DNA of 64,000 nucleotides, from IMG/VR virus record IMGVR_UViG_3300027782_003801. One strand, given 5' to 3'. Shown here piece after piece: positions 7,338-53,185 of the stretch; the stretch's first letter is position 1, and each line of letters begins with the position of its first letter. The DNA comes from an uncultured virus (IMG/VR IMGVR_UViG_3300027782_003801). Lineage: Duplodnaviria; Heunggongvirae; Uroviricota; Caudoviricetes. Position numbers and translations under genes: made by a program. The notes under the pieces are model-generated. The model made no database searches. It saw only the letters and a program-made list of their open reading frames with translations, and was not told the origin of the DNA.

Positions 7338-7958
7338 TTATAATGAACTGTAATAATTATTTTGTTTTTCTTGACGTCCTATTGTCTTGTGATGTTGTAT
7401 ACAATATTCTTCATCTAATGGTAATGATGAAAATTTCTGACCACCTATTATTCTTTCGTGTACTTTACCATACCAACTCATACCTTTACGAAATACACGT
7501 CCTTGAGCATCGGGGAAGTTAACCCACCCCTTTTTATTAACACTCCAACCCCATTTATTTATGTGTTCTTCGGTTAAACCATCTACAGTATTAATACGAG
7601 GAACAAATATTAAATCCACATCAGGATTCATTTCTAACATTTGATTTATATTTTTAACCATATATTCACTAATCATTTCATCGGCATCTATTTGATAGAT
7701 GTAATCTCCCTGACAGTAGTCATTCAATTTGTTTTTCCAATTGGCAAAGTTACCTTCAAAATCAAACCCTCTCCACGTTTGAACGTGAGGGAATTTATTA
7801 TATGGTAATAAGAAATCTAATATTTCGGGATTGCCGTTCTTCTCGTCATAGAGAATAACAATCTCATCTTCCTTTCTTTTATGTTCAAATAAAAATAGAA
7901 CCAATCTTTTTATTTCTTCTAGTTCATTACAAACTGTAATTGCAAAACTTATTTTCAT
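7338..7958 (-). CDS. Family 2 glycosyltransferase
   Basis: ISFAITVCNE, QIDADE, VHER. Confidence 0.85.
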   Translation of the reverse strand: MKISFAITVCNELEEIKRLVLFLFEHKRKEDEIVILYDEKNGNPEILDFLLPYNKFPHVQTWRGFDFEGNFANWKNKLNDYCQGDYIYQIDADEMISEYMVKNINQMLEMNPDVDLIFVPRINTVDGLTEEHINKWGWSVNKKGWVNFPDAQGRVFRKGMSWYGKVHERIIGGQKFSSLPLDEEYCIQHHKTIGRQEKQNNYYSSL

Positions 7959-7959
7959 A

Positions 7960-8202
7960 TTATGCTCTTTGTCCTCCGTTTATTCTTCCCGTTAATATAT
8001 TTATTACTTCGTTGTCTATTTCTTCCACAATTTGTTCCGACATTAATCTCGTTAATTCAGCCTCAGCATCAATTGTATGAACCGCATTTAAATCGTCAAT
8101 TAATTCAGGTCTCCATTGAGCACGTAGTGTTCTAACGATGTTCTGAATACCTTCCGATTGAATTGTTATCCCATGAAAAAATCTAAACTCTCTAACTCCC
8201 AT
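7960..8202 (-). CDS. Small protein: FxFF tag fused to a T4 gp23-like major capsid protein fragment
   Basis: MGVREFRFFHG then RTLRAQWRPELIDDLNAVHTIDAEAELTRLMSEQIVEEIDNEVI, matching the gp23 core signature; start taken at ATG 8202. Confidence 0.75.
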   Translation of the reverse strand: MGVREFRFFHGITIQSEGIQNIVRTLRAQWRPELIDDLNAVHTIDAEAELTRLMSEQIVEEIDNEVINILTGRINGGQRA

Positions 8203-8203
8203 A

Positions 8204-8449
8204 TTATTGTTTTGGTCTGGCATAAAACTTAAATGTTTTACCGGTAGTACTGTCGGTAAATGTCATTATTGATTGGTTTGTGTTAGGTATAGTAATAACA
8301 ACTTCAGGTCTTTCTACCGTTTCATCAGCAGTTGCGAAAACTTGAGGTTCATCATTATCAAATTGAACAACCCATTCACACGGCATGTATTTGATAATAG
8401 TATTTTCAATTTGAACTTCCCCTTTTTTCTTTTTTGTTGACTTCGCCAT
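8204..8449 (-). CDS. Hypothetical protein
   Basis: ORF tiles the operon. Confidence 0.7.
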   Translation of the reverse strand: MAKSTKKKKGEVQIENTIIKYMPCEWVVQFDNDEPQVFATADETVERPEVVITIPNTNQSIMTFTDSTTGKTFKFYARPKQ

Positions 8450-9703
8450 TTATTTAACTCTATTTAATTTAGGTAGTATTAGTTTAGTTTGTTGTGGTAT
8501 AGTAATGAATGGTGTTAATATACTTTTAAATTTTTCTGTCATTTTACTTAATGAAAAATTGTTTTTATTTTCTTCTTTTAATATTTTAGATTTAGTTAAA
8601 AATTTATTATAATCTTTTTTAACCAATTTTAAAACCTCAACTACTTCATTGTAGTTAGCGGTAAACCATTTAGAACCTTTAATAATAAAGGTGTCGACCG
8701 CACTTTCATCAACATTGGTTAATTTGCCACCAACCATAATTGAATTATCAATAGATAAAAAATCCTTATGACCTGACCAATTAGATGCAATTACAGGTTT
8801 ACCTGTCATAGTGAATTCTAATAGAGGTCTACCGAATCCCTCACCTTTAGTGATTGACACCATCGATTTAATTTTAGGATGATTGTATAAATCGTTCATT
8901 TCTTTATTAGTTAAATCACCGAACAATAAATAAATAGAAGGGGGATTTTTAATGTCACCAACAATTTCTTTTATTTTTTTTCTAAACGATTCTCTTTCTT
9001 TTACTGAAAAATTGGCAGAAGATGTTTTAAGAACTAATGCGGGTTTATTTTTATTTTCATCTTTAAATGATTCCACAAAACATTTAATTAACATACCAAC
9101 ATCTTTTCTATCTTGACCAAGGTTACCCTTCAACCAGTGACCAACAAAAAGATAAGCGAAATCTTCTTTGATATCTAATTTAAAATCTTTATTAATTACA
9201 TCATTATAAATTGATATATCAGCACCTTCAAATAGAACCTCAACAGGTTTTTCTATTTTATGTTGTTTTATTATCTTATCACTATCTTTTTCTTTTTCAT
9301 TATATACTGTTGATAAAAGAACTTCTTTAGAAAAATTAGATGTTGCAATGATTAAATCCATTCTATTACAACCATCAACCCAATCTTTAGGTGCGATAGT
9401 TGTTTCAATACCGGCAGTTATACCAATATTAAATTTACCAAATCTTTGAAATTCATTTGGTACTGTAACTTGAACATATATATCAGGTAGTCCTTGAAAT
9501 TGTGTAACGATGTTTCCCTTAATCCATTGATGAAATAAGTTATCATCTTCTAATGCTGTCATAGGAGTTGAACCCCACACACAACTATCAATTTTAATAT
9601 CAAACATATTCATTTGATATAACGATTCTAATAAATCTCTTGAATGTGAACCATATCCACTTCTTGTTTTAATTGGTCCTCTAAATAATAACGTTGGTTT
9701 CAT
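8450..9703 (-). CDS. Family 4 (GT-B) glycosyltransferase
   Basis: TRSGYG, RKDVGML, KGEGFGRPLLE, PVIASNWSGHKDF. Confidence 0.88.
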   Translation of the reverse strand: MKPTLLFRGPIKTRSGYGSHSRDLLESLYQMNMFDIKIDSCVWGSTPMTALEDDNLFHQWIKGNIVTQFQGLPDIYVQVTVPNEFQRFGKFNIGITAGIETTIAPKDWVDGCNRMDLIIATSNFSKEVLLSTVYNEKEKDSDKIIKQHKIEKPVEVLFEGADISIYNDVINKDFKLDIKEDFAYLFVGHWLKGNLGQDRKDVGMLIKCFVESFKDENKNKPALVLKTSSANFSVKERESFRKKIKEIVGDIKNPPSIYLLFGDLTNKEMNDLYNHPKIKSMVSITKGEGFGRPLLEFTMTGKPVIASNWSGHKDFLSIDNSIMVGGKLTNVDESAVDTFIIKGSKWFTANYNEVVEVLKLVKKDYNKFLTKSKILKEENKNNFSLSKMTEKFKSILTPFITIPQQTKLILPKLNRVK

Positions 9704-11061
9704 TAAACTATTTTATATAAATTAAATCTTTCACGAGGTGTGAAGTTTTTTATTGTTGTCTCGATACCTTCACTCATTGAATCACACATTACTTTTGATG
9801 ATAAGTTTTTAATAGCAAATTCTCTTCCTTTCAAACCATTTTGTTTTCTTAATTCTTTATCTGTCATATAGATGTCCATAATTTTATTTGCAACTTCTTC
9901 ATCGTTAACCCTATCGTCAAATATATAAGGAGTAATGGGCGAACCATTGATGTTAGTCGCCGCCGGCCATATTGGATTTACCCAAACACCATGTGGAGTA
10001 TCGTTATGTTTGTTTTTATTACTTAATGTTTCAACATCAATATAATCATCCGCAGTATAATCAAATCCACACTGGTCTTGTAATCCACCTGTAACATTAA
10101 CAATAATAGGTGTTCCGGCCATTATACTTTCCGCAGTACCCAAACCAAATCCTTCATTACTTGCGATGTTAATAGTACAATCGGCAATGTTATATAATTC
10201 ATTTAACTTGTCGGCTTCAATTTTATTGGTTGAGAACACAACATTATAATCAGGACATACTTTATCCTTTACAGCATATAAATCAGTACCATTGTTATCT
10301 ATTGGTGTGGTATGTAATAACAAGACACATTTATTGGCATCTTCTTTTGATAATTTATCACAAAATAATCTATAAGCGTAAATTAAATCTGATGTTTGTT
10401 TTCTTCTAATATTTCTACTGTTATAAAATAACACAAAACTATATTCTTTATCACCAAACAATTGTTTATTGGTTTCTGTTAAATCAATGTCTAATGGTTT
10501 GAAAACGTTTGGATTAATTCCATGTGGAACATAACTAACTTGCCAATCCTCTAATGGTTTACGAATACCATCGTCCATTTTACCCACACGATTAACAATA
10601 CCATAGGTTAATTTAGATATACAACCTAACCAATCACAACTTTCGTAGTAATCTTTGTTATATAATGGGTCGGGAAGATTATCCCAAATATGATAATAAA
10701 GAATTGGAACTTGTTGTCTTATTTCATGTTCAGCATCATATAACCATTGCCAATAGTGAGGGTCGGTAAAATGTAATATAGCGTCTATCTTTTCTTCTTT
10801 AAGAATTGTCCTTAAAACATTAATGTCACCATAACCATTATATGGTATTATCTTTACTTCAGCATCTTTAACACCCGTTCTTTCTCTAACATCATCGTTA
10901 CAATCAACAAACTTACCGTTTTCAGGATGATTAATACCAGCACCTAATTGTATCCAATTAAACCTATCAACGGTACCCATTACGAATTCTTTAGACATTG
11001 TTGAAATACCTGAAGTCATTCGTAAATCGTCCGATAATAATAATATTCTTTTTTTACCCAT
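9703..11061 (-). CDS. Family 4 (GT-B) glycosyltransferase
   Basis: ILLLSDD, VPHGIN, RNIRRK, SNEGFGLGTAE, GTPIIVNVTGG; start at MGKK. Confidence 0.88.
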   Translation of the reverse strand: MGKKRILLLSDDLRMTSGISTMSKEFVMGTVDRFNWIQLGAGINHPENGKFVDCNDDVRERTGVKDAEVKIIPYNGYGDINVLRTILKEEKIDAILHFTDPHYWQWLYDAEHEIRQQVPILYYHIWDNLPDPLYNKDYYESCDWLGCISKLTYGIVNRVGKMDDGIRKPLEDWQVSYVPHGINPNVFKPLDIDLTETNKQLFGDKEYSFVLFYNSRNIRRKQTSDLIYAYRLFCDKLSKEDANKCVLLLHTTPIDNNGTDLYAVKDKVCPDYNVVFSTNKIEADKLNELYNIADCTINIASNEGFGLGTAESIMAGTPIIVNVTGGLQDQCGFDYTADDYIDVETLSNKNKHNDTPHGVWVNPIWPAATNINGSPITPYIFDDRVNDEEVANKIMDIYMTDKELRKQNGLKGREFAIKNLSSKVMCDSMSEGIETTIKNFTPRERFNLYKIV

Positions 11062-11062
11062 A

Positions 11063-11266
11063 TTAATATTTTGATCCACTCACAGATAAATCTGTGTAAT
11101 TATTTATTTTATTTCTAAATGATTCGTCTTTGACGTAAAGGTCTAATGTACGATTAACTAATTTTTGTAAGTTAATATTGCCATCAATTGCATTTATCTT
11201 AAATTTTCTGTAAACGTCTTCCAATACATGGACACTTGTTAATTTTTTTTCTATTTTCATATTCAA
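11063..11266 (-). CDS. Small protein, possibly ribbon-helix-helix DNA-binding
   Basis: KLTSVHV beta strand followed by two predicted helices. Confidence 0.55.
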   Translation of the reverse strand: MNMKIEKKLTSVHVLEDVYRKFKINAIDGNINLQKLVNRTLDLYVKDESFRNKINNYTDLSVSGSKY

Positions 11267-11295: not shown

Positions 11296-11326
11296 AAAAA
11301 AATATCGTTAATAATAACGATATCTT
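11296..11326 (-). terminator. Putative intrinsic terminator
   Basis: atatcgtta/taacgatat stem with T-run on minus strand after the MGCGC ORF. Confidence 0.55.
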
Positions 11327-11341
11327 AAATTATCGTGTATA

Positions 11342-11476
11342 TTATTGATTAGTGTTTGATGTCCCCTCTTGAGTTACTGGTTGAGTAACTTCTGGTGTTT
11401 GAACTTCACTTAATCTAATGTTTACCGGTGGTTGAACTGGTGAATCTTGTTTTTTACCTTTACATCCGCATCCCAT
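11342..11476 (-). CDS. 44-aa MGCGCK-type small protein
   Basis: Manual translation MGCGCKGKKQDSPVQ...; TATTTATA motif upstream. Confidence 0.65.
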   Translation of the reverse strand: MGCGCKGKKQDSPVQPPVNIRLSEVQTPEVTQPVTQEGTSNTNQ

Positions 11477-11503: not shown

Positions 11504-12718
11504 TTATTCGTTTTTGGAGACCCTATACCATTCTTTTTTTGATATTGTTATACCATTTTTTGTTATATCATTTGATTCATAATCCTCCCAAAATTTCTTT
11601 GTTAAAAAATCCTCACAACTTTTTTTAAGTTTAATAAAATCACAATTCGTTGTAACTTTATTCCAAAGTAAAGTGTATGGTAGAAATCCAGGATGATTAT
11701 TAAACCCCGATACAATATCTTCAGGATAGAAATCACCACACTTTCTAATATAACCAACTTCTTTGAAATTATCAATAGTCCACTCATCAATTCCACCTCT
11801 TCTATATCTTTCATTCTCATAAAACCAAATATTATTAAAGTTTAATTGATTTATTTGGTTTGAAGTTTCGGGTGACATTATTTCTAAATCTTTTAAATTA
11901 TTATTAATTGGATTATAATTATCATTTATTATGATTTTCTTTAATTTATGGTCAACTCTTTGTACCTCTAATCTAGATGGTAAATCGTGAATCAATAAAC
12001 CATCATTGTTTTCCCAACCTGATAGTGTTGATTGCATAAATAGAAAATTATATTTAATACCTGACTTTTCTAAGAAAAATTGAGTCCTCAATATATTATC
12101 TAAATAAGTTTTTATTTTATTTTCTAACGGAAAACTTAATTCAATTTCCTGAGCTTTTTCAAGAAAATATTTAAAATCGGGACCAATTTCTGAGAATGAG
12201 TCCATCGGCATGTGACAAGGACTTATGTAGATTTTATCCTTTAATTTCGGAATCGTTAATATTTTTTTTGAATTGTATATCTCCAATTCATCTAATAAAA
12301 ATTGTATTGGTTCTAAAGAATTACTTTCTAAATTTTCTTTTTGAAGTAAATCATAATAGAAATTCTTTTTCTCCCAATCAAATAAATCTAAATCTAATTT
12401 AATATAATTAAACGGATGAACTGAAAACCTATGCCATTGTGACCATTCAACTAAAGTGTATATGTTTTTAGAATCAACACCCAAATCTAATAGTTTTTGA
12501 CACACATAAATTGTTGAATCTGATTGCCAATCAGAACCTTGACTACCCATTGAAGTGTTAATTATAACTGTATCATCATCCATTAACAACCAATCTTCAC
12601 CATATTCTTTACTTAAATTTGAATTACATGACCAATTGAAAGGTCTAAATGTGAACTCAGGAATACGACCGTAACTACAACCTGATGCGACAACAAATTT
12701 ATATTTTTTTAAATCCAT
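11504..12718 (-). CDS. SGNH/GDSL-like protein
   Basis: ASGCSY, GSQGSD, VEWS..R, C-terminal HP. Confidence 0.6.
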   Translation of the reverse strand: MDLKKYKFVVASGCSYGRIPEFTFRPFNWSCNSNLSKEYGEDWLLMDDDTVIINTSMGSQGSDWQSDSTIYVCQKLLDLGVDSKNIYTLVEWSQWHRFSVHPFNYIKLDLDLFDWEKKNFYYDLLQKENLESNSLEPIQFLLDELEIYNSKKILTIPKLKDKIYISPCHMPMDSFSEIGPDFKYFLEKAQEIELSFPLENKIKTYLDNILRTQFFLEKSGIKYNFLFMQSTLSGWENNDGLLIHDLPSRLEVQRVDHKLKKIIINDNYNPINNNLKDLEIMSPETSNQINQLNFNNIWFYENERYRRGGIDEWTIDNFKEVGYIRKCGDFYPEDIVSGFNNHPGFLPYTLLWNKVTTNCDFIKLKKSCEDFLTKKFWEDYESNDITKNGITISKKEWYRVSKNE

Positions 12719-12781
12719 TTTTGTATTTGTCAATTTAATTTCTTATATTTTAATAATACGAAAAATAAATAAAAAAATCAA

Positions 12782-13480
12782 ATGGATAAGGACTTCAAAC
12801 CTATAAAGAGTGTTTACAACAGCAATTACGAAGTGATTAAGAATATAATGGATTTATATAAAATCGACCGTTTTGATTTAGATTGTACCTATTCTACCGG
12901 AAACTTTTGGAAGGAACTCCCAACACCAAAGTTTAAATCGGATTTATTCCCCAAAAACGATACAATTATTGAGGCCAGTTCAGAACATTTACCATTTGAG
13001 GATGGAAGTATGAAGAGTATTATGTACGACCCTCCATTTGTAATTGCGGGTAAAACATATAAGGATAATAGAGTGGGGAGTTCTATTATTGCTAAACGTT
13101 ATGAGGGATATGAGACCTATGGACATCTAATGAAGAATTACTACAATACATTAAAGGAATTGTATAGAATAACCGAAAAAGATGGTTTGGTTGTTTTTAA
13201 ATGTCAAGACACCGTTTCAGGTGGTAAAAATCATTTTACACATTCAATGGTTATGGATATGGCAATGGAAATGGGATTTTACCCTAAAGATTTATTTATT
13301 TTAGTTGCAAATTTAAGAATTAATAGTTTTGGAACAAAATGGACAAAACAAGAACATGCGCGGAAATATCACAGTTATTTTTGGGTTTTTCAAAAAACTA
13401 AACCAAAAGTTAAATACGATTTCTCAAACATTGAACCTTATTCTATTGAACTGGATTCTGAGGAGTCCCCAAATACATAG
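12782..13480 (+). CDS. Amino (N6A/N4C) DNA methyltransferase-like protein
   Basis: LDCTYSTGNFW SAM motif, YDPPF catalytic motif, VFKCQD. Confidence 0.75.
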   Translation: MDKDFKPIKSVYNSNYEVIKNIMDLYKIDRFDLDCTYSTGNFWKELPTPKFKSDLFPKNDTIIEASSEHLPFEDGSMKSIMYDPPFVIAGKTYKDNRVGSSIIAKRYEGYETYGHLMKNYYNTLKELYRITEKDGLVVFKCQDTVSGGKNHFTHSMVMDMAMEMGFYPKDLFILVANLRINSFGTKWTKQEHARKYHSYFWVFQKTKPKVKYDFSNIEPYSIELDSEESPNT

Positions 13481-13808
13481 CAACTTTATCACCCACTTTC
13501 CACCCATCACAGGTACCTGCGGGAAATTCAATGATATGGTCACCAATACCTGTGTAACGAGGTAAAGTCATCCTGTGTGGGTCAGGAGCCTCACAGTTAG
13601 AATGTATACGATTAATACGGTTGTTAAGGACAAATAAAATATCTAATGGTATTAAACAGTTCTTCATCCAAAATGAATGGTGACCCTTACCCATCTTGAA
13701 TACCATACAACCGTTTAGTTCTGTTCTACCCATCATACCTTTTTGAATATCATCTGGCGATGAAAGGTATTCGGCGGGAAATGTTTTGTTATTGATGTGA
13801 ACTGACAT
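13443..13808 (-). CDS. DUF192 family protein
   Basis: KGMMGR, SFWMKNCLIPLDILF, IEFPAG. Confidence 0.85.
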   Translation of the reverse strand: MSVHINNKTFPAEYLSSPDDIQKGMMGRTELNGCMVFKMGKGHHSFWMKNCLIPLDILFVLNNRINRIHSNCEAPDPHRMTLPRYTGIGDHIIEFPAGTCDGWKVGDKVAMYLGTPQNPVQ

Positions 13809-13864
13809 ATCTATAATTATTTGGAAATTTCAAATTAAAAGGTTATATTATAAAAAACAAAGTT

Positions 13865-14044
13865 ATGCAAATAAAAATTAGAGAAATAATCTATATAATG
13901 ATGATGATAACTGGTATTCTTATTGAGAAATACGGGTTGAATACGGGTAACCCTGAATTGGAAAAGATGTTTGGTTGGGGTATGATTAGTTTAGGTCCAA
14001 TCAATATGGTGATTGATTATATTAAGAAACCTAAAAAGAAGTAA
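13865..14044 (+). CDS. Small membrane protein (59 aa)
   Basis: Manual translation MQIKIREIIYIMMMITG...; two hydrophobic segments. Confidence 0.6.
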   Translation: MQIKIREIIYIMMMITGILIEKYGLNTGNPELEKMFGWGMISLGPINMVIDYIKKPKKK

Positions 14045-20076: not shown

Positions 20077-20487
20077 ATGGCATATTCAGATAAAGTGTTG
20101 GATCATTATTCTAACCCCAAGAACGTGGGAACATTAGATAAATCCAAATCAAATGTAGGAACTGGGTTGGTTGGTGCTCCCGAGTGTGGTGATGTAATGA
20201 GATTACAAATTGAGGTTGTAGATAACATTATTACCGATGCTAAATTTAAAACCTTTGGGTGTGGTTCAGCAATCGCATCATCGTCAGTTGCAACCGAATG
20301 GTTAAAAGGTAAAACGTTAGATGAGGCAATCACAATTGATAATATGGATTTGGTTGAGGAATTAAACCTACCACCGGTTAAGATACACTGTTCAGTTTTA
20401 GCACAAGATGCCATACAAACTGCAATAAACGATTATAGAAAGAAACAAGGATTAGAGGAAATAATCTTTGAAGAATCACATGTATAA
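20077..20487 (+). CDS. iscU: Fe-S cluster scaffold IscU
   Basis: MAYSDKVLDHY.NPKNVG, APECGD, FKTFGCGSAIASSS, LPPVKIHCS. Confidence 0.96.
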   Translation: MAYSDKVLDHYSNPKNVGTLDKSKSNVGTGLVGAPECGDVMRLQIEVVDNIITDAKFKTFGCGSAIASSSVATEWLKGKTLDEAITIDNMDLVEELNLPPVKIHCSVLAQDAIQTAINDYRKKQGLEEIIFEESHV

Positions 20488-20499
20488 AAAATATAAATT

Positions 20500-20808
20500 A
20501 TGAGTTTTATTATTGGAAGTAGTTGTGTTGATTGTATGGATACGGCTTGTGCAAATGCGTGTCCGGTTGATTGTATTCACGGACCAATAAATGTTGAAGG
20601 TTCAGGTTCAGAAGTGGGTGAACAAGGTAAGGATGCGTTCCCTGGAGGACAACTTTATATAAATCCTGACAGTTGTATCAATTGTGGAGCTTGTGTACCT
20701 GAATGTCCTGTTAGTGCTATCTATGAAGATGAAGATTTAGCAATTAAGGCTGGCGAAGAAGAATACGTTCATAAAAATTACGAATTCTTTGGTTTAAAAT
20801 ATAATTAA
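20500..20808 (+). CDS. Dicluster ferredoxin (FdxA-like)
   Basis: CVDCMDTACANACPVDC and CINCGACVPECP. Confidence 0.9.
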   Translation: MSFIIGSSCVDCMDTACANACPVDCIHGPINVEGSGSEVGEQGKDAFPGGQLYINPDSCINCGACVPECPVSAIYEDEDLAIKAGEEEYVHKNYEFFGLKYN

Positions 20809-20809
20809 A

Positions 20810-21139
20810 ATGGTTACAGTATCGGATAAAGCACTTGAACATGTTGTTGAGTTGATGATGGAAAAAGGAATAACACCTGACACCCATTTTCTTCGTGTTG
20901 GAGTTAAAGGAGGTGGTTGTAGTGGTTTATCTTATGCTATGGATTTTGACAATAATGTAACAGACATGGATGAAGTCGTTGATTTAAATGTATTGAGGGT
21001 GATTATAGATAAAAAATCACTTTTATATCTATATGGTACTGAATTAGATTATTCCGATGGTTTAAACGGAAGAGGTTTTAATTGGATTAACCCAAATTCC
21101 AGCCGAACTTGCGGTTGTGGAGAAAGTTTTGCTCTCTAA
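20810..21139 (+). CDS. iscA: A-type Fe-S carrier IscA/HesB
   Basis: RVGVKGGGCSGLSY, GTELDY, NPN..TCGCGESF. Confidence 0.93.
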   Translation: MVTVSDKALEHVVELMMEKGITPDTHFLRVGVKGGGCSGLSYAMDFDNNVTDMDEVVDLNVLRVIIDKKSLLYLYGTELDYSDGLNGRGFNWINPNSSRTCGCGESFAL

Positions 21140-26655: not shown

Positions 26656-26686
26656 AATCCTCACAGAAATGTGGGGATTTTTTTTT
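26656..26686 (+). terminator. Intrinsic terminator
   Basis: aatcctcac/gtggggatt stem followed by T-run. Confidence 0.7.
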
Positions 26687-26729
26687 GTATTATTTTGTAT
26701 ATTCAAAAACATTTCATATCTTTGTTGGT

Positions 26730-27149
26730 ATGAATATATTACTAATAATTTTTCTAATATTGGTTTGGGTAACCTCATCTGTATATGTGATGTATTATCA
26801 TAATAAACATTACACATTAGGTTTGGATATGGTAATAGGTGCGATATTATTAGGACCAATATTAGCTTTAATAGTAGGAAAGGATGTTGAAGAGAAGAAG
26901 AAATATTATGGGGTAATGGAACAGGAGAGTAATGATAGACATAGAGGATGGTTTAGAACAATGTCAGAAATTAATAGACAACGAATGACAAGTTTTGGTA
27001 GGTCCATTCCACCTCCACCACCGATATCACGAATTGCTCAATCACAATCAGAAAGAGAAACGGCAATTAGGTCAGCAATAGAAAGAATAGATAAAAATAA
27101 AATAAAGGACTTCAAATTTTTAAGAAGCAATGTTAAAGATACCGAATGA
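26730..27149 (+). CDS. Membrane protein with C-terminal DFKFLR tag
   Basis: Start after TATCTTTG promoter (26717); two TM helices; ends KIKDFKFLRSNVKDTE. Confidence 0.7.
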   Translation: MNILLIIFLILVWVTSSVYVMYYHNKHYTLGLDMVIGAILLGPILALIVGKDVEEKKKYYGVMEQESNDRHRGWFRTMSEINRQRMTSFGRSIPPPPPISRIAQSQSERETAIRSAIERIDKNKIKDFKFLRSNVKDTE

Positions 27150-29231: not shown

Positions 29232-29552
29232 ATGAGTTATATTATAGGTAGTAAGTGTGTTAGTTGTATTGATGGGTCCTGTCTAAAGGTGTGTCCCGTT
29301 GATTGTATTAACGGACCTATTGATGTAAAAGGTATGGGTAAAGAATCTATTGGTATGACTGAAGAAGAAAAAGTTGGCAAACAATTATATATTAACCCTG
29401 ATGTGTGTATTGATTGTGGTGCGTGTTTACCTGAATGTCCGGTGGATGCTATTATGCCGACTGAAGAATGGGCAATTAAGGATGGTGAGTTAGAGTATGT
29501 ACACAAGAATTATGAATTTTACGGACAAACATACAAACCTATAAAAAAATGA
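29232..29552 (+). CDS. Dicluster ferredoxin (paralog of 20500..20808)
   Basis: CVSCIDGSCLKVCPVDC, CIDCGACLPECP. Confidence 0.9.
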   Translation: MSYIIGSKCVSCIDGSCLKVCPVDCINGPIDVKGMGKESIGMTEEEKVGKQLYINPDVCIDCGACLPECPVDAIMPTEEWAIKDGELEYVHKNYEFYGQTYKPIKK

Positions 29553-35840: not shown

Positions 35841-36737
35841 ATGAAAATAATATGTGATGGAGATTCGTGGATGTTTGGGTCCGAAATCGTTGACCCAATC
35901 ATAAGTTCAAGATATAGTAAAGATATTCATCCAGGCGAATACGATTGGATTCCTGAAAACGATGAATATAGAATACCTAAAATATTTCCAACAATATTAT
36001 CAAATTTAATGGATTGTGAACTTGTTAATTTATCTTGGCCAGCCAATGATAACGGAACTATTTTAAATAGAACAATTTCATACATAACTGAAAATTATTT
36101 AAGTAAAAATAAATCAGTTGATGATTTATTTGTGATAATTGGGTGGTCATCACCGGAACGAAATTCATTTTGGTATAAGGATGAAAAAATAAGTGATAAA
36201 TTTGTTCTTTGGCCAAATGTAAAAAATCTATTAGTTCCTAATATGGAAGAATTTTGGGAAATATATGTAACGTATTTGTGGAATAAAGAAGAGTTTTTAC
36301 CAAGATTTGTTAATAATGTTTTATCGTTACAAAATTTTTGCGAGGTTAATAAAATAAAATGGTTATGTTTTAATTCATTTTACCAAACACCTAAAAATGA
36401 AATATCACGTTGGAATGATTTAAATATTAAAAAAGAACTAAATCAAATATCATTAAATGGTAATGACTATTATGATAATAAAAGTAACAATAGAAAAAAT
36501 TTTAAATATGATTATCTTTCTATATGGGACACTATAGATAATGTTAGGTTTTATAAAAAAGACCAATTAAATAATAGTTTTAAAAGCTTTATGGTTGAGA
36601 ACAACCCTGATAATCCATATAATGGTTGGCATCCATCACCTGAATCACACAAAATATGGGCCGAGGAAATATTTAGGTATATAAACGACAATAATTTAAC
36701 AAATGAAAAATCTGGTAATTTGCGGAGATTCCTTTAG
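35841..36737 (+). CDS. SGNH/GDSL-like protein
   Basis: DGDSW, IGWSSPER, HPSPESH. Confidence 0.7.
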   Translation: MKIICDGDSWMFGSEIVDPIISSRYSKDIHPGEYDWIPENDEYRIPKIFPTILSNLMDCELVNLSWPANDNGTILNRTISYITENYLSKNKSVDDLFVIIGWSSPERNSFWYKDEKISDKFVLWPNVKNLLVPNMEEFWEIYVTYLWNKEEFLPRFVNNVLSLQNFCEVNKIKWLCFNSFYQTPKNEISRWNDLNIKKELNQISLNGNDYYDNKSNNRKNFKYDYLSIWDTIDNVRFYKKDQLNNSFKSFMVENNPDNPYNGWHPSPESHKIWAEEIFRYINDNNLTNEKSGNLRRFL

Positions 36738-37494
36738 TATTGGAATTGGATGTGAAGATTTAATTAATGAACCATATGGATCACTTCTTGCAAAAGAATT
36801 TAATTTAAATTTAATTAATTTAGCGAAAGGTTCTAGCACTAATTTATCAATTTCATTACAGGTTAAATATGCAATTGAGAATATAAAAGACATTGAATTA
36901 TTAATAATTGGTACAACTTCTTATTATAGATTTGAGTGGTTTCCTGAAAACGCAAAAAATAAAAACCAACTCAACAATTTAAATGTTAATTATCATGAAT
37001 ATCCACCATATGGTCAAGGAACTTATGAACATCTAATTGATAATCCAATGATAACTGATAACAGATATTGTGGGGAAATGTTAACGGAAAATTGGGTCGG
37101 TATATTAGACTACAATAAAATGTTAGATAATAATGACGGACACCCAGAACATTACTTCAAAAAATTTAAAACTGAAAGAATCGAAAGAATAAGGTTACTA
37201 AGAGATTATTTTTATGAATTTTTTAATAGTTCAATACAAAGACATTATGATATTGGAACAATAACAATGTCACATAATTTATTGAAAAATAATAACATAA
37301 AACATTATATATTAAGTGACGATTTGGAATTAAAAATGTATGTGGATAAAAAAAATATAATACACAATGATTGGGACGTATTATCAAAAAAACATCCAGA
37401 CCCAATGAAAAGTTTACACACCTCATATGAAGGACATAAAATTGTATTTAATATCATAAAAGATGTTTTAAATAACCCAAATAAAATTATATGA
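36703..37494 (+). CDS. SGNH/GDSL-like protein
   Basis: CGDSF, NLAKGSSTN, HTSYEGH. Confidence 0.7.
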   Translation: MKNLVICGDSFSIGIGCEDLINEPYGSLLAKEFNLNLINLAKGSSTNLSISLQVKYAIENIKDIELLIIGTTSYYRFEWFPENAKNKNQLNNLNVNYHEYPPYGQGTYEHLIDNPMITDNRYCGEMLTENWVGILDYNKMLDNNDGHPEHYFKKFKTERIERIRLLRDYFYEFFNSSIQRHYDIGTITMSHNLLKNNNIKHYILSDDLELKMYVDKKNIIHNDWDVLSKKHPDPMKSLHTSYEGHKIVFNIIKDVLNNPNKII

Positions 37495-38921
37495 AAGTAG
37501 GTGTAATGGTATATGGACAATATCGAGATTTTGAGATTGCAGTGAAATCATGGAACTTTTTAGATAGTGGATATGATTTTTATTTCTCAACATGGAATAA
37601 TTCAAAACAGTATAGTAGAAAATTAAATATCGATAGAGAATTTGAAGTTAATGAGGATATGATTAGAAAACATGTTCCCAATTCTACAATATCAATTTTA
37701 GATGAATTAAAATATGTTGAAAATACAATTGATGGTGAAAACAGACCAAATAAAATGATACATCATTGGAGAAATTGTTTAAAATTGATTCAAGATAGTG
37801 GTAAAAAATATGACAGAATATTAATAATTAGAATTGATAGTTATTTTCATTTTAATATACCATTGAATGAAATAATTAATAACTCCAAAAATGAAACATT
37901 ATATCTCTATAATGATTTAATTATCGATAATGGAAAAGTTTGGTCACAAGATTTGTTTTTTATGGGAGACCAAGATTTAATTTTTGATTTTATTAAAAAA
38001 ACACCAAATAAAATAAAAGACATTCATTTTGATTTGGGTGAAACTATAATAAATAACAAATACAATATTGATTTTGTCGAACCAAAAATTAGAATATGTC
38101 CAGCCACACCTACACTTAATTCATATGACATAAAAGAAGTGACATATATTTTAGCAAATGTAGAATGGATAAATTGGATAAAAAATGGAAAAGATTATGG
38201 AAAAAGAAATCAATATAAAATTGCGGTGTTGGTTTGCGGACAACTTAGGGAGTTTAATATTGGTGTCAAATCTTGGGACCCTCTATTTGATTTAAATTGT
38301 GATTTTTACTTTTCAACTTGGAATAAATCATCACAAAGTAATACTAAGTGGAATGATAATTTTATTAATGACGAAAAAATAATCAACGAACAAATGATAG
38401 TTGACCTTATCCCTAAAAGTTCAGTGTTAATATTAGATGAGGAAGATTACGCACACATTAATAAAGACAAAATTACGGACAAACAAATTTTACATTGGAA
38501 AAATACATTAAAAATGTGTGTTAATAGCGGCGTGGAATATGATATTATCATTGTCATCAGACCCGACGTATTTTTAGATTTACCTAATTTTAAAAAATAC
38601 GTAGATGACATAAAAGACAAAGAAATAAAAACTATGAATAACACCCCACCAAATTGGTTTTATGATATATTTTTTATGGGTAATTTTAACACAATTAAAA
38701 CTTTTATTGAAGGTATAAAAGAATCTGAAATTACTTATGTTCATGAAGATTTATATAAACATTTGATTTCTTTAGGATTATCATTAACTTTTTTTGATAA
38801 TGAGATGAAATCAGTTGAGATAAGACCAACCGAAAATGGATTTTTTGAAAAAAACATAGATTACGATACAATTGTAAAATCAAATAATGATTTTATATTA
38901 AAATATGGTAAACCAAATTAA
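37491..38921 (+). CDS. Tandem two-domain glycosyltransferase-like protein
   Basis: Internal duplication K(V/I)xVxxxGQxRxF..DFYFSTWN..HW.N.L..R.D..D.FFMG. Confidence 0.6.
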   Translation: MKVGVMVYGQYRDFEIAVKSWNFLDSGYDFYFSTWNNSKQYSRKLNIDREFEVNEDMIRKHVPNSTISILDELKYVENTIDGENRPNKMIHHWRNCLKLIQDSGKKYDRILIIRIDSYFHFNIPLNEIINNSKNETLYLYNDLIIDNGKVWSQDLFFMGDQDLIFDFIKKTPNKIKDIHFDLGETIINNKYNIDFVEPKIRICPATPTLNSYDIKEVTYILANVEWINWIKNGKDYGKRNQYKIAVLVCGQLREFNIGVKSWDPLFDLNCDFYFSTWNKSSQSNTKWNDNFINDEKIINEQMIVDLIPKSSVLILDEEDYAHINKDKITDKQILHWKNTLKMCVNSGVEYDIIIVIRPDVFLDLPNFKKYVDDIKDKEIKTMNNTPPNWFYDIFFMGNFNTIKTFIEGIKESEITYVHEDLYKHLISLGLSLTFFDNEMKSVEIRPTENGFFEKNIDYDTIVKSNNDFILKYGKPN

Positions 38922-38982: not shown

Positions 38983-39375
38983 ATGAAAAGATTTGTATTT
39001 TTCCACGGGTACCAAGAAGAACATCCATTATTGGATATTGATTGGGACGCAATCAACAGATTGAATAATATCAATACTATTCTTACTCCAAATTGGGGCG
39101 GAATAACATACACCCCAACATGGGTGGTAAATCCAGGACTAATAACCTATACACCACCAAATTATACTATAACCACAACACCCGGCACTAGTACGTACAC
39201 AATTCCATACTATGGAACGATAAACACAGCAACAGGATATAGTTTAACAACATCAAACACAAACGGAACAACATATACAACAACAGGAACAGTTACAACA
39301 GGAGGAATAGGAGGTACTTTAACAACTGGTACTGCAACATTTAGAAGTGGAGCATTTACCTCAAAATTTATGTAA
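38983..39375 (+). CDS. FxFF-tag protein, Thr/Gly/Tyr-rich
   Basis: MKRFVFFHGY; low-complexity Thr-rich body. Confidence 0.65.
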   Translation: MKRFVFFHGYQEEHPLLDIDWDAINRLNNINTILTPNWGGITYTPTWVVNPGLITYTPPNYTITTTPGTSTYTIPYYGTINTATGYSLTTSNTNGTTYTTTGTVTTGGIGGTLTTGTATFRSGAFTSKFM

Positions 39376-39815
39376 TGACTAAATTCAAGTTTTTCAGGGG
39401 GTATATTGGAACGTTAGATATAATGGACGGACAAACATATGCGACAGCATCATTATATTACCCAAGATTAGATTCCAATAATGAAATGGAAAGATGGTTT
39501 GCCGAACGTGATTTACAAACTATAACTCATGAACAATACATGTTGAATAGAGACATGTTAATTGAACAAGAAAGAATAAGAAGATTAGGAATGATAAATC
39601 ATTCAAGGGAAACTGATAATCAAATTAGATTGTTTCAAGCAACGACAATAATAACGGTTAACCCAACACCATGGACCAAGGTTAAGATATTTGGGACAAG
39701 AGTTAAATTGGTTTTAATTGAAACTTGGAAGTTGGAACCTATCGGTGTTGTTGTAATGACATTATTGGTATCAGTTGTTACATTCATAGGTATAATGAAA
39801 TTATTTGGAGCATGA
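39375..39815 (+). CDS. FxFF-tag protein with C-terminal TM helix
   Basis: MTKFKFFRGY. Confidence 0.65.
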   Translation: MTKFKFFRGYIGTLDIMDGQTYATASLYYPRLDSNNEMERWFAERDLQTITHEQYMLNRDMLIEQERIRRLGMINHSRETDNQIRLFQATTIITVNPTPWTKVKIFGTRVKLVLIETWKLEPIGVVVMTLLVSVVTFIGIMKLFGA

Positions 39816-40132
39816 TAAAGGATTTCAAATTTCTAACAGATAATGATGATGATATACCAGAAGGATATATCAATTTAGAGAATGTGGAGATTGCAACTTG
39901 GATGTGGGAAAGTTTAATGGTTCCGTCAACGGCGACGTATCAGATAGTTTCGGTAGACACTAACGGTATTATTGAATTTTTAAGAATGTTTCCGTCAGAG
40001 ATGATAGTTCCCGTGAGTTCTATTGTTGGTCCAAATGGTGTGGTTCACAATGGCGAAAACGAAGGAATTGGGTGGGGATTTAACATTCAAACAGACCCAA
40101 TTCATATTACATATTTAAGATACAGACCATAA
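39812..40132 (+). CDS. FKFL-tag protein
   Basis: ATGA-coupled start MIKDFKFLTD. Confidence 0.65.
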   Translation: MIKDFKFLTDNDDDIPEGYINLENVEIATWMWESLMVPSTATYQIVSVDTNGIIEFLRMFPSEMIVPVSSIVGPNGVVHNGENEGIGWGFNIQTDPIHITYLRYRP

Positions 40133-46037: not shown

Positions 46038-46274
46038 TTAACCATTTTCATTTAATCGTTGAGTCAATTCATTAGTTAATATACGAATCCATTCGTCTTT
46101 TGTTTTCCCATTGTATGGGTCGGGTATTTCGGTTAGACCAACACCCCGTAAACATAAAATAGTATTCTCAATGTGACTAGCGGTCATATAAAAAATAGGG
46201 GTATCTCGACCATTTTGAGACCTCCAACAGACATTCCTATCGAATATTTCCCCTCTTAAGAATTTAAACTCCAT
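46038..46274 (-). CDS. FKFL-tag protein
   Basis: MEFKFLRG start 3 nt after a minus-strand TATCTTTG promoter; W.SQNGR..I..M..SHIEN. Confidence 0.7.
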   Translation of the reverse strand: MEFKFLRGEIFDRNVCWRSQNGRDTPIFYMTASHIENTILCLRGVGLTEIPDPYNGKTKDEWIRILTNELTQRLNENG

Positions 46275-48107: not shown

Positions 48108-48283
48108 ATATATTGGAACTATATGAAAGATATAATAAAGTGTATGAAATTGAATTAAGAGAAGTTGCAACTCCATATCATTTACAACTTATGAAAGAGA
48201 TTGATATGTTAGAGAAGTTAACAATAGATGAGTTTAAAGAAAAATTAAATAACATAGATTTTAAAAAGAAATGGGGAAATTAA
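48104..48283 (+). CDS. Hypothetical protein (59 aa)
   Basis: Manual translation; fills gap with overlaps at both ends. Confidence 0.55.
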   Translation: MNILELYERYNKVYEIELREVATPYHLQLMKEIDMLEKLTIDEFKEKLNNIDFKKKWGN

Positions 48284-49714: not shown

Positions 49715-49797
49715 ATACCATAAATATGGTATTATTTAAGTTACTAACATCCAAAATCTGTTTTGGAATACCAAATATTATATGTATATTTAATCTT

Positions 49798-50250
49798 ATG
49801 GGACTCTCAACATTTAGATTTTTCAGGGGTATACTTCGTAAAGCGAGAGTAGTTCAATTAAGACATAGATTGACAAGAACACCAATTGCACACATACCAG
49901 TTCCCCCACACACAGCAACGATATCTGAATATCGTAGAGCGTTTATTAATGGATGGAGATCCTGTGAGTTCGGAAGGAACATATACGACTGCCCACATTC
50001 ATCATACGACCTGGTTGAAATACAATTAAAAAGGGAATGGGAATTTGGATTCACAGAATGTTTTAACACAAGACAAGAGGATTTTGTTGAGATTGACACA
50101 ACAATTACTCAAACAGATGAACAATGTTATCTAAATGGATGGGAACGAGCACAACAAGGACGTCCATTAAATGAAAACCCACATACATACGGGTCACACC
50201 AATTTAATATGTGGTATGTTGGGTGGAATGACTTTGTGGATAACCATTAG
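49798..50250 (+). CDS. FxFF-tag protein with two RMF/CrpP-like repeats
   Basis: MGLSTFRFFRG; AFINGW..G....CPH...W..GF and YLNGW..A..G....NPH...W..GW. Confidence 0.65.
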   Translation: MGLSTFRFFRGILRKARVVQLRHRLTRTPIAHIPVPPHTATISEYRRAFINGWRSCEFGRNIYDCPHSSYDLVEIQLKREWEFGFTECFNTRQEDFVEIDTTITQTDEQCYLNGWERAQQGRPLNENPHTYGSHQFNMWYVGWNDFVDNH

Positions 50251-50290
50251 AATATTTCGTATATCCAAACTAATATCTTATATTTGTATC

Positions 50291-50749
50291 ATGACCGACG
50301 CACAAATAGTAATATCAATTTTATCTGGTATAATATTTTTTTTATATCTCGTTAACAATTTAATATCACTTTCTAATGTTGAATTGTATATGAAAAAATA
50401 TAATGAATTACAACGTGGTGTGTATAAGTATGAACCAAATCCAAGTCTTCAATCACATTATTTTTATTTATACAGTTACGATATTAATACCGTTACATTC
50501 ACTAAAACTAATGTCTACATTTTATTCTTTCTTGATGGTGATATAAAACTAACAGAAAACAATTATATACATAAATGGCAAATATGGTGGTCAATACCAA
50601 CTTGGTATCATTATAGAAAACTTCATAAGTTAAAAGATGAGTTAATAGTAAATTATGAAAGAGGACTTGATTTTAGACAGATTTATGATAGAGCTGTAGA
50701 ATTAGAAAGGAAAAAAAATAAGTTAGAATTTAAATTTTTGCGGGGATGA
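50291..50749 (+). CDS. Membrane protein with C-terminal EFKFLRG tag
   Basis: Start after TATATTTG; N-terminal TM; ends KLEFKFLRG*. Confidence 0.7.
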   Translation: MTDAQIVISILSGIIFFLYLVNNLISLSNVELYMKKYNELQRGVYKYEPNPSLQSHYFYLYSYDINTVTFTKTNVYILFFLDGDIKLTENNYIHKWQIWWSIPTWYHYRKLHKLKDELIVNYERGLDFRQIYDRAVELERKKNKLEFKFLRG

Positions 50750-51261
50750 TAAAACCATTCAAACTACTTAATGGGTATGTCTATGATGATGAGTATACAT
50801 TACCAGTACGAACAGATCCACCATTTGGTATATCACATCGTCATTGGAATATGTTGCCACAGGATTTGAGAGGTGGAACGCTAATACATATGGAAATATA
50901 CATTGAGGGGTGGGAAGCTGGTCGCAATAATATCACCATCAATCCATATGAAGGTATTATCAATGACCCTATGGTTAGTGAATGGATTGAGTTGTGGAAT
51001 AGAGGACATCTAAGGTGGTCTGATAGAACAGGACAAAATTTTAGAAATGTAAATCCCAACCCACCAATAGATGAAACATATCCTGAATTCTATAACACAG
51101 ATGAATTTGTATTCTTTGACGTGACGCCAGTTGTGTATGATTCTGAATCTTATGTTCCATATAAATTCATGTTGTTTAGACATATTGAAGATGGGAACAC
51201 AGTACAAGGAAGTAGAATAACCCCCGAACACCCAATGTGGAATTTTCCTGATATAATTTAA
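50746..51261 (+). CDS. Tag-variant protein with an RMF-like segment
   Basis: MIKPFKLLNGY; YIEGWEAG....NPY...W..G. Confidence 0.65.
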   Translation: MIKPFKLLNGYVYDDEYTLPVRTDPPFGISHRHWNMLPQDLRGGTLIHMEIYIEGWEAGRNNITINPYEGIINDPMVSEWIELWNRGHLRWSDRTGQNFRNVNPNPPIDETYPEFYNTDEFVFFDVTPVVYDSESYVPYKFMLFRHIEDGNTVQGSRITPEHPMWNFPDII

Positions 51262-51274
51262 AAAACAAAATAAT

Positions 51275-51439
51275 ATGAGATTAAACGTAGAATTACTTGC
51301 AATTGATTTTTACAGAGTAGGAAGAAGTTGGATTTCTTTTTTAGAGATTAATTATGGTCACCCATTATTTTATTTAGAATGGGGACAAGGTATGAAAATA
51401 CAAATCAGTTTTTTATTTGGACTAATTAAAAATTATTAA
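51275..51439 (+). CDS. Hypothetical protein (54 aa)
   Basis: Manual translation MRLNVELLAIDFY... Confidence 0.55.
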   Translation: MRLNVELLAIDFYRVGRSWISFLEINYGHPLFYLEWGQGMKIQISFLFGLIKNY

Positions 51440-51440
51440 T

Positions 51441-51674
51441 ATGAAATTTGAAGAAGCGGAAGAAAAATCTTTAACCGTAAAATGGGAAATCGGAACTTGC
51501 TCGCAAGGAGAAAGGTGTTGGTGTAGAACGATTAAACCTATTGAACCTATACTTTTTGATGATGGAGATAGTCAAGATGAATATTGGATAGTTGGGTCTG
51601 GCGAGTTACATAAAAATATTGCGGAGTATTTTGTTGAACTCCATAATAAAAATATTGAAAACAAAATTAAATAA
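51441..51674 (+). CDS. Hypothetical protein
   Basis: C....CWCR.I..ELHN. Confidence 0.65.
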   Translation: MKFEEAEEKSLTVKWEIGTCSQGERCWCRTIKPIEPILFDDGDSQDEYWIVGSGELHKNIAEYFVELHNKNIENKIK

Positions 51675-51675
51675 T

Positions 51676-51855
51676 ATGAAATTTAGAAAAACACTCACAG
51701 ATAAACGTCTTGAAGAATTGTCTGATAAGGTAAGAAGAGGAACTCCAATCTTAATGAGTGAGGCAATTGAGGTGGTGGAATATCAAGAGATGTTAAAGAA
51801 GAATAAACTACCTTTCACAGATAGAATACTTAATTTCTTTAAAATAAAACAATAA
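51676..51855 (+). CDS. Hypothetical protein
   Basis: ATG after previous stop. Confidence 0.6.
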   Translation: MKFRKTLTDKRLEELSDKVRRGTPILMSEAIEVVEYQEMLKKNKLPFTDRILNFFKIKQ

Positions 51856-51860
51856 AGATT

Positions 51861-52088
51861 ATGAAAACATTTAAGTTCCTCTCAAAGAAACAAGTTCCTA
51901 TACCAAATAGATATAGTAGTTTAAGTCCTGAGGATAGAAACATATACACAAAAGGATATTATGATGCGTTTGATTGTTATAATCATAGTCGTTCGTTAGA
52001 GTCACCATACAATCCACTTGTGGAAGAATATGAGTATGAATTATGGAGAGAGGGAGTTACGATGTATGAACGAAATAATAATGTATAA
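51861..52088 (+). CDS. FKFL-tag protein with an RMF-like segment
   Basis: MKTFKFLSK; YTKGYYDA....SPY....W..G. Confidence 0.65.
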   Translation: MKTFKFLSKKQVPIPNRYSSLSPEDRNIYTKGYYDAFDCYNHSRSLESPYNPLVEEYEYELWREGVTMYERNNNV

Positions 52089-52486
52089 TGATAAAGGATT
52101 TCAAATTCTTTAGATCTAACATAACAAGGGTTAATTGGCAACTAACCGGTTTATTAGATGATGCAACAAATGTTCCATTATTGATTGGTGTATTGGACAT
52201 CACATACAAATATATTCAGGATAATAATCTAATGGATAATGATAGGGTTAATAATATGTTGATTATTATTATGACTAAATTATACAGAGACAAATATAAT
52301 TCTTATAGTGATTATGATATTAGAGGTAAGATTGATGAGGTTATGATTCATATGGATAGTGTCACAATAAGAAGATATATACAAGAACTTGCAGCGGGTG
52401 CTTGGACTAGTATTGATGTTGAAGCGGAGATTAATCATATTATTTATGAAAAATGTAAATGGGAAGAACATGATCACGGATTTTAA
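52088..52486 (+). CDS. FKFF-tag protein with major-capsid-like segments
   Basis: MIKDFKFFRS; WQLTGLLD and IDVEAEI. Confidence 0.65.
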   Translation: MIKDFKFFRSNITRVNWQLTGLLDDATNVPLLIGVLDITYKYIQDNNLMDNDRVNNMLIIIMTKLYRDKYNSYSDYDIRGKIDEVMIHMDSVTIRRYIQELAAGAWTSIDVEAEINHIIYEKCKWEEHDHGF

Positions 52487-52862
52487 ATTTTTATCGGGGG
52501 TGAAATCCATGTTGGATATGTATGGTAGAGAAATCAATCCAAATCATTATCAAACAATCAGTTTAACCGGCAATCTTCGTTTTCTAAAAGAATACCATAG
52601 AAGATTGGATTGTTTTTATATGTCACATTATAATATGTTTAATGATAGACATCCATTGTATAATCAATCATTAGAATTATATGATAGAACGGTTGGATTT
52701 ATTAATGGAGGTCATATAACAACCCATGAAGAGATAAGGAGATTTGTTCATATCGCTTATTCAGATATGGTCTATGGAGTATTTGAACCGTGGGAAATGG
52801 GTGGAGCAACAAATCAGGAGATATTAGTTGATACATATAACTTTATAAACCCAAGACGATGA
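52470..52862 (+). CDS. FKFL-tag protein
   Basis: MITDFKFLSG. Confidence 0.65.
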   Translation: MITDFKFLSGVKSMLDMYGREINPNHYQTISLTGNLRFLKEYHRRLDCFYMSHYNMFNDRHPLYNQSLELYDRTVGFINGGHITTHEEIRRFVHIAYSDMVYGVFEPWEMGGATNQEILVDTYNFINPRR

Positions 52863-53185
52863 AGGACTTCAAATTTCTCACCAAGAACAATACCATAAAC
52901 TTTAACGGACAAATGTCCATTGAGGCACTTAGATATTTCAATGATTATGTCAATAATGTAATTAGATATGAAATCTCAACACCAACCGCAACATATAGGA
53001 TGGTGGATTACACTTATGGTGACGGTAATATTGTGGCAGGAACTATCAACGCACATCCATCAGGTGTATCCAATGTAATGGTCACCTATAGTATAAGGAA
53101 CGGGGAGATTACGGGACACACAATACATTTAGATTACTGGAATACGGCGGGACAGTTAGTAAACGCATTAAGAGAGACACAATAA
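52859..53185 (+). CDS. FKFL-tag protein
   Basis: MKDFKFLTK. Confidence 0.65.
   Translation: MKDFKFLTKNNTINFNGQMSIEALRYFNDYVNNVIRYEISTPTATYRMVDYTYGDGNIVAGTINAHPSGVSNVMVTYSIRNGEITGHTIHLDYWNTAGQLVNALRETQ

Follow-up and report, generated by a model that had tools for sequence, protein, structure and literature searches.

The window, which is the whole stretch of 64,000 nucleotides analysed here, derives from a giant, uncultured freshwater phage of 31% GC, whose assembled genome (G000) amounts to 126 kb and is 38% complete. On its minus strand, positions 7960..8202 hold a mini-gene of 80 codons plus stop, and the product is lysine-free with a net charge of -5. A tag of the form F[KR]F[FL], here FRFF, occupies residues 6-9 (8176..8187, minus strand). 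Behind it lies an excerpt of a gp23-type capsid protein (7993..8172, minus strand) that corresponds to T4 gp23 residues 251-310 and comprises a strand, a short acidic P-domain helix and the spine helix, labels that follow PMC9546572. A C-terminal tail, R-I-N-G-G...R-A (7963..7992, minus strand), extends beyond the gp23 match and is typical of the lineage in our alignments.

For residues 11-70 of the mini-protein, the match to Pfam PF07068 had an E of 2.5e-13 and scored 50.6 bits, above the cut-off of 24.4 (profile positions 135-194 of 376), and further matches were found to PHROG 138 (E 5.8e-13) and to residues 251-310 of T4 gp23 (PDB 6uzc; E 7.2e-6). Judged by these scores, the match is far above chance, and the gp23-family identity put forward in the original prediction holds. 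The capsid segment quoted there is present in the 80-aa translation and does follow the tag, but not directly, as 14 residues intervene; the homology also starts earlier than had been described, already at residue 11, and a 13-residue tail comes after the quoted segment. The open reading frame is intact and tightly packed, as had been claimed, with one base between it and either neighbour and the arrangement stop-T-ATG at both junctions. Its stop-to-stop frame spans 100 aa, and an alternative in-frame ATG 21 nt upstream, within the neighbouring gene, would give a product of 87 aa. An AlphaFold2 model based on 45 sequences gave one helix, at residues 46-75, with a pTM of 0.29; with 80 aa and this single modelled helix, the mini-protein is without a complete HK97 fold and indeed too short for a capsid protein. 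The mini-gene was the sole gp23 match in G000, and the phage's own full capsid gene was not found in that 126 kb, 38% complete assembly.

Upstream of the mini-gene lie a gene of 81 aa (8204..8449, minus strand) and two family-4 glycosyltransferase (GT4) genes (8450..11079, minus strand; Pfam and PHROG), and downstream lies a family-2 glycosyltransferase (GT2) gene (7338..7958, minus strand; Pfam). These glycosyltransferases anchor a slot found with GT4 upstream and GT2 downstream in 20 of 20 loci, a count in which several loci are near-copies of each other, and for which a script scored 19 loci (GT4 in 19, GT2 in 18) and two gaps were filled by reading loci L208 and L322. The 81-aa neighbour has no assigned family, with no usable match in Pfam, PHROG or Atlas. 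It contains nine lysines and a tag-like FKFY at its end, and its paralogue in relatives carries the tag at the start and is lysine-poor (3-4 lysines). In a contig from run X1 (window 8201-8450), the GT4 gene is joined straight to the mini-gene and the neighbour is absent, which likely represents a strain without it.

Two near-complete relatives, G001 (335.6 kb) and G007 (316 kb), carry both the mini-gene and an intact capsid gene elsewhere, and each has a second tagged gene with a different capsid segment. The full capsid gene of G001 is about 177 kb from the mini-gene, near a protease gene; the mini-gene itself lies outside the head module (protease and scaffold), in the glycosyltransferase operon, in all 20 loci. 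Within the lineage, the glycosylation-operon setting that had been proposed is thus a conserved address, but capsid-excerpt genes in general do not need it, since it was found at none of three loci with permuted excerpts.

A search of proteins of 44-140 residues gave 508 homologues of this length among 509 candidates, and the tag was present in all of the best 120 of these 508. Fourteen viral loci showed 64-100% identity to the mini-gene. Among 11 distinct genes the median dN/dS was 0.24 (52 of 55 pairs usable), falling to about 0.1-0.2 for the closest pairs, while the flanking glycosyltransferases gave 0.11 and 0.17 in the same comparison. Conservation was stronger in the N-terminal 20 residues (pN 0.037) than in the capsid-like core (pN 0.132). 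No relative of the mini-gene was found in bacterial and archaeal genomes; cultured phages matched through full capsid genes only (19 records), and Atlas searches returned only small gp23-domain clusters. The gp23 match, purifying selection and wide conservation together bear out the earlier view of a functional, capsid-derived, tagged mini-protein. Evidence for expression from metatranscriptomes was rejected, as two runs shared 6-7% of words and a single 151-nt contig lay on the gene, with 16 differences. A promoter scan returned 23 sites against 29.4 expected.

Within the tag, F6, F8 and F9 were invariant in 82 of 82 distinct close homologues, and position 7 was R or K. The motif is encoded by synonymous codons, including both leucine boxes; a DNA-level motif was accordingly rejected, and the tag is conserved at the protein level. 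The mini-gene is one of a library of small genes that combine a terminal tag with a lysine-poor body. In G001, F[KR]F[FL] or a close variant opens 25 small genes, many of which lie in an overlapping array, and two membrane proteins end in the tag; the window holds 11 tagged small genes and two tagged membrane-protein genes. Three N-terminally tagged small genes occupy region 38983..40132 on the plus strand (38983-39375, 39375-39815 and 39812-40132), and another lies at 46038..46274 on the minus strand. An array region on the plus strand (49726..53185) contains six tagged small genes (49798-50250, 50746-51261, 51861-52088, 52088-52486, 52470-52862 and 52859-53185) and a membrane-protein gene ending in the tag (50171-50749). 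The other membrane-protein gene (26685..27149, plus strand) has its tag near the C-terminus, and its G001 orthologue is also tag-ended. The tag occurs at the N-terminus, at the C-terminus, at both ends, and on two membrane proteins. At one locus only, L322, the tag was FKFG on the mini-gene and on its neighbour alike, in the same slot.

The tagged bodies fall into 33 families among 113 ORFs and are mostly unrelated to each other. Only one of the 33 families strongly matched a large G001 protein, and three matched with segment profiles; most of the library is therefore not recognisably made of virion excerpts. In the tagged array at G001 12628-14037 (L023), each gene start overlaps the end of the previous gene, and several of the upstream proteins share an N-E-T-I ending because the tag DNA is read there in another frame. 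Three tagged bodies of the window (51861-52088, 49798-50250 and 50746-51261) carry G..A...NPY...W motifs that, in our estimation, resemble ribosome modulation factor, a name given to these bodies by no profile match. A second N-terminal motif, approximately M-K-[LF]-x-D-[IL]-[IL]-x-E, was seen on 10 larger, lysine-rich G001 proteins (G001 15550-69751) and on at least two proteins in the window (53465-55348), and is a candidate packaging signal. A third shared tag, a K-[KT]-[IL]-[IL] tail, is found on many modification-type enzymes (G001 about 262-288 kb and 330-335 kb; window 35841-38921 and 47505-49714). Elsewhere in the window (20077-21139 and 29232-29552) we noted IscU-like, IscA-like and two ferredoxin-like genes, which were named on visual inspection of their translations.

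Lysine is avoided throughout the library. G001 tagged bodies contained 2.0% lysine (2,378 residues) as compared to 9.7% in 195 untagged small proteins (20,816 residues), and arginine was doubled; the corresponding values for the window were 1.6% and 9.2%. Tagged and untagged small genes had equal GC and A content, and composition bias was thus rejected as the cause of the lysine loss. In the 120 closest homologues of the mini-protein there were 0 lysines in 8,828 body residues after the tag, though 483 of 1,041 codons are one change from a lysine codon. Position 25, after a conserved arginine, is an invariant lysine in 71 of 71 full capsid proteins. This lysine was kept in 2 of 34 scored tagged fragments versus 48 of 50 hits of at least 200 residues, among the best 150 of 610 representative hits (37 classed as tagged fragments, 34 of them scorable). 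G001 has four tRNAs and none for lysine; nevertheless, an explanation through tRNA-Lys is not favoured, as the tag itself often contains lysine.

We also compared the excerpts to the capsid proteins of their relatives. The core of the mini-protein was 59% identical to the G001 capsid protein over 46 residues, and 52 fragments showed 37-80% identity to the capsid segment of the clade, which is itself nearly invariant. In an alignment of 45 members, of which 44 are 37-95% identical to the mini-protein, capsid signatures were kept, with W30 and E49 invariant and A28, I44, D45 and L50 present in at least 90%. Two positions set the mini-proteins apart: at position 35 (T4 A275), 80 of 82 homologues had I or V and 71 of 71 capsid proteins had A, and at position 52 (T4 G292), R was present in 82 of 82 homologues and in 0 of 71 capsid proteins. 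Residues 40-43 came in alternative blocks (NYYHG in 33, NTVHT in 25 and NAVHT in 11 of 82 homologues), which may reflect recombination or diversification, and some relatives of the mini-gene have internal duplications. The 52 fragments were placed in a tree with 14 capsid segments, built on 58 columns; 1 of its 63 inner branches was starred, and the tree fits one or several captures. When the G001 capsid protein (without an alignment) and the mini-protein (with alignment A2) were modelled together, the score was 0.00, which speaks neither for nor against a complex.

We ran segment profiles from 71 capsid proteins on the 113 tagged bodies, with 223 untagged small proteins and 2,260 shuffles as controls. 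The spine family accounted for 16 rows. Two further tagged families matched a segment near gp23 97-125, above all of the 223 untagged and 2,260 shuffled controls; we take this segment to be the Gol region (about 94-122). The tagged gene at 50746-51261 marginally matched the C-terminal segment of the capsid protein (8.5 bits versus a control maximum of 6.1, with five profiles tried), and that at 52088-52486 was rejected as a degenerate spine excerpt (8.5 bits versus a shuffle maximum of 9.2). Profiles of the capsid N-terminal and A-domain segments found nothing above controls among the 113 tagged bodies.

The segments also occur in permuted form. In the protein P0154, the spine segment precedes the 97-125 segment, which is weak on its own, and tags stand on both ends. 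This permuted order was found in 17 of 38 hits to P0154; in ten of the 17, both ends bear Phe/Lys tags, and the other seven have a different terminal motif. A short gene of the permuted type was present in 3 of 80 metagenome loci, none of them in a glycosylation operon. At L137, the gene just upstream of the permuted gene matches the capsid C-terminal part. Paired adjacent lysine-poor mini-genes were noted at L131 (154-790) and L137 (4645-5642), jointly covering three conserved capsid segments. A mini P-domain was expected for P0154, and its model gave no such fold but two helices only (mean pLDDT 47, pTM 0.31). Because the models give only helices, the excerpt would look like a linear epitope and not a folded domain, on the weak evidence of low-confidence models. 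An excerpt of another virion protein occupies the mini-gene slot at L386 and L387, where a 60-residue, double-tagged tail-fibre excerpt is encoded (L386, the only one scanned, matched PHROG 9942 at E 1.7e-8); it had no match among G001 proteins. In G001, an untagged 48-aa gene (11325-11471) ends in Q-P-M and contains a stretch resembling the spine helix (E 0.0015 to the L322 mini-protein); it is possibly a decayed permuted excerpt.

The host is likely a member of the Bacteroidota. Shine-Dalgarno-like words precede only 7 of 317 G001 genes and upstream regions are A-rich, features that we take, with PMC6847099, as a host pointer; the best cultured match of the capsid protein is a Flavobacterium phage. 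For the phage ClpP, Psychroflexus and Olivibacter are the nearest named isolates; closer hits come from binned contigs, which are possibly phages. G001 encodes a Clp ATPase, ClpP, Hsp20 and tmRNA, and a near-complete protein quality-control kit was noted at G001 109705-112230 and 212530-213207 and at L027 6275-6679. The first AAA domain of the Clp ATPase begins at residue 68, and the enzyme is therefore likely without an N-domain. An unfoldase would read a tag sitting at free ends, and the phage-encoded Clp ATPase/ClpP pair is a candidate reader of the tag.

The mini-gene thus encodes a real, selected, lysine-free capsid-excerpt protein that is part of a tagged library. As to its function, we tentatively propose that the mini-protein is a bait for host capsid-recognising proteins, docked by its tag on a common partner. 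In this proposal, the binding partner of the excerpt would be a host protein, a sensor or a quality-control factor, that detects unassembled capsid protein. The tag may then act as a docking motif that brings the pair to a shared partner, which would hold or destroy it, and the loss of lysine may shield the bait from lysine-directed modification. Capsid proteins are known immune triggers for CapRel (PMC9712102), CmdTAC (PMC11618068) and Gol/Lit (PMC3014915), and CapRel has been modelled on the P-domain sheet and spine helix (PMC9712102).

Support for a bait comes from the selection on the gene, its coexistence with an intact capsid gene in G001 and G007, the library, the lysine loss and the other virion excerpts, and the alteration of residues 35 and 52, which by alignment appear relevant to the shell, points the same way. 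Several observations weigh against it. A sensor could be activated and not blocked by a faithful copy of its trigger, and the excerpt appears not to track the capsid sequence of its clade (59% identity here; 37-80% among the 52 fragments). Most of the library, as far as comparison can recognise, seems not to be virion excerpts. The captured segments are the most conserved parts of the capsid protein and are for that reason also the most detectable, and the location of the gene is a glycosyltransferase operon and not the tagged array, which looks early. The original prediction had offered a decoy, a degradation adaptor or a dominant negative; given the lysine purge, the tag library and the divergence from the clade capsid protein, we favour a bait or adaptor over a dominant negative.

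Alternatively, the excerpt might act on the capsid protein itself, tuning head size or timing, recruiting glycosyltransferases or protease, or poisoning the heads of a co-infecting relative, which we consider rather doubtful. Numbered through the match to gp23 (PDB 6uzc), the excerpt spans the T4 head-length positions A268, A275, D285 and D287, in the acidic P-domain helix, and the gp31-bypass positions 292, 306 and 307, in the spine helix, and the start of the second captured segment, gp23 97, adjoins N-terminal length mutations (PMC9546572). The glycosyltransferase-operon slot, kept in 20 of 20 loci, would also suit such a role. However, a poison would be expected to act on the nearly identical capsid protein of the phage itself as well, and contact residues are altered in the mini-protein. 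Further, the tag, slot and lysine rule are not confined to capsid excerpts, being found also with a tail-fibre excerpt and unrelated bodies, and permuted excerpts lie outside glycosylation operons in three of three loci.

It is also conceivable, though in our view unlikely, that the excerpt has been repurposed, so that the tag is the functional element (through partner titration or occupation, or membrane binding) and the capsid helix serves as an acidic, soluble carrier or has a target other than capsids. Most tagged bodies are mutually unrelated (33 families, 113 ORFs), fragments diverge much faster than capsid proteins, and the N-terminal 20 residues are more conserved than the core (pN 0.037 versus 0.132), all as expected of a carrier; a similar Lys/Phe peptide serves as a cell-penetrating carrier (PMC10213699), which is a lead only. 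Against a carrier, capsid signature residues are retained across the 45 aligned members, and no fewer than three capsid segments, together with a tail-fibre segment, are found repeatedly behind different tags, a pattern not predicted for a neutral carrier.

It appears improbable, as a third alternative, that the tag targets the protein to the capsid, where it would be packaged among the internal head proteins and later injected along with the DNA. T4 internal proteins do share a short N-terminal targeting sequence (PMC9958956), and a capsid excerpt could help localisation, but the tag of this library is found at C-termini and on membrane proteins as well. A better packaging candidate is the glutamate-ending N-terminal motif on the 10 lysine-rich G001 proteins, and gp21-type proteases cut after glutamate. 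Finally, pseudogene debris of a capsid duplication, for which the original prediction had named neutral evolution or absence in relatives as the signs, is refuted by the selection data: although the dN/dS of 0.24 is above the 0.11-0.17 of the neighbours and some relatives have internal duplications, neither sign was seen, the frame is intact in all loci at a fixed position under purifying selection, and the 8,828 residues hold no lysine with 483 of 1,041 codons one change away from it.

The bait reading can be widened, speculatively and with considerable doubt, to a modular bait-and-dock anti-defence system run by giant T4-like phages, with excerpts that are copied, permuted, lysine-stripped and tagged. 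Virion parts that cannot be mutated (capsid spine helix, Gol region, P-loop region, tail-fibre repeats) would be copied, and host sensors, once captured, would be delivered by the tag to a shared machine that sequesters or degrades them, like viral substrate-adaptor libraries. Capsid proteins are frequent immune triggers and hard to mutate; CmdTAC, for example, gave no gp23 escape mutants (PMC11618068). If the proposal is true, a gene-encoded capsid excerpt is a general way round the limit on mutating the capsid, and the copied segments point to the surfaces read by host sensors. If an action on assembly holds instead, the mini-protein represents a novel type of head-assembly modulator, one spanning the classical T4 head-length positions. 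In both cases, it would be wrong to discard short "gp23" annotations in metagenomes as fragments, and an 80-residue protein with a tag and a single purged lysine site is small enough for direct tests.

Such genes or tags were not found described in the full-text literature searched, which was mostly without subscription papers and supplementary gene tables, and a term search of the available text of a jumbo-phage survey (PMC7824862) gave no description of them. Within this scope, the tagged capsid-excerpt architecture appears to be without a known equivalent, and the closest known systems each resemble it in part. The mini-protein is homologous to the family of T4 gp23, whose residues 251-310 it matches, and of the vertex paralogue gp24 (PF07068; PDB 6uzc, 8t9r, 1yue). 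Unlike these, it has 60 of about 500-600 residues, no A domain and no complete P domain, and is tagged, lysine-free and predicted as a single helix, coexisting with the full gene. Selected lysine depletion is shared with the lysine deserts of ubiquitin-system adaptors and actinobacterial phage proteins, which have been proposed to avoid lysine-directed tagging (PMC13696103). In contrast to these, the deserts described here are from a phage of 31% GC with a likely Bacteroidota host. To our knowledge, no Pup system is expected in such a host.

Gol/Lit, CapRel(SJ46) and CmdTAC parallel the bait reading in that a capsid protein is the trigger, and for Gol a 29-residue gp23 excerpt is active alone (PMC3014915). 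Their triggers, however, sit inside the intact capsid protein and are read by host sensors, and none is a separate phage gene; the mini-protein, moreover, derives from gp23 251-310 (spine) and not from the first-quarter Gol region, which sister genes carry (97-125). The capsid-targeting sequence of T4 IPII and IPIII is likewise a short terminal peptide on small proteins (PMC9958956), whereas the tag described here is not strictly N-terminal, being found at either or both ends and on membrane proteins, and its bodies are lysine-poor. Ccm and CpmAB are satellite capsid modulators of staphylococcal islands, and these small or capsid-related proteins alter head assembly. They are encoded by satellites and act against a helper phage, while the mini-protein is encoded by the phage itself, as a 60-residue excerpt with a shared tag.
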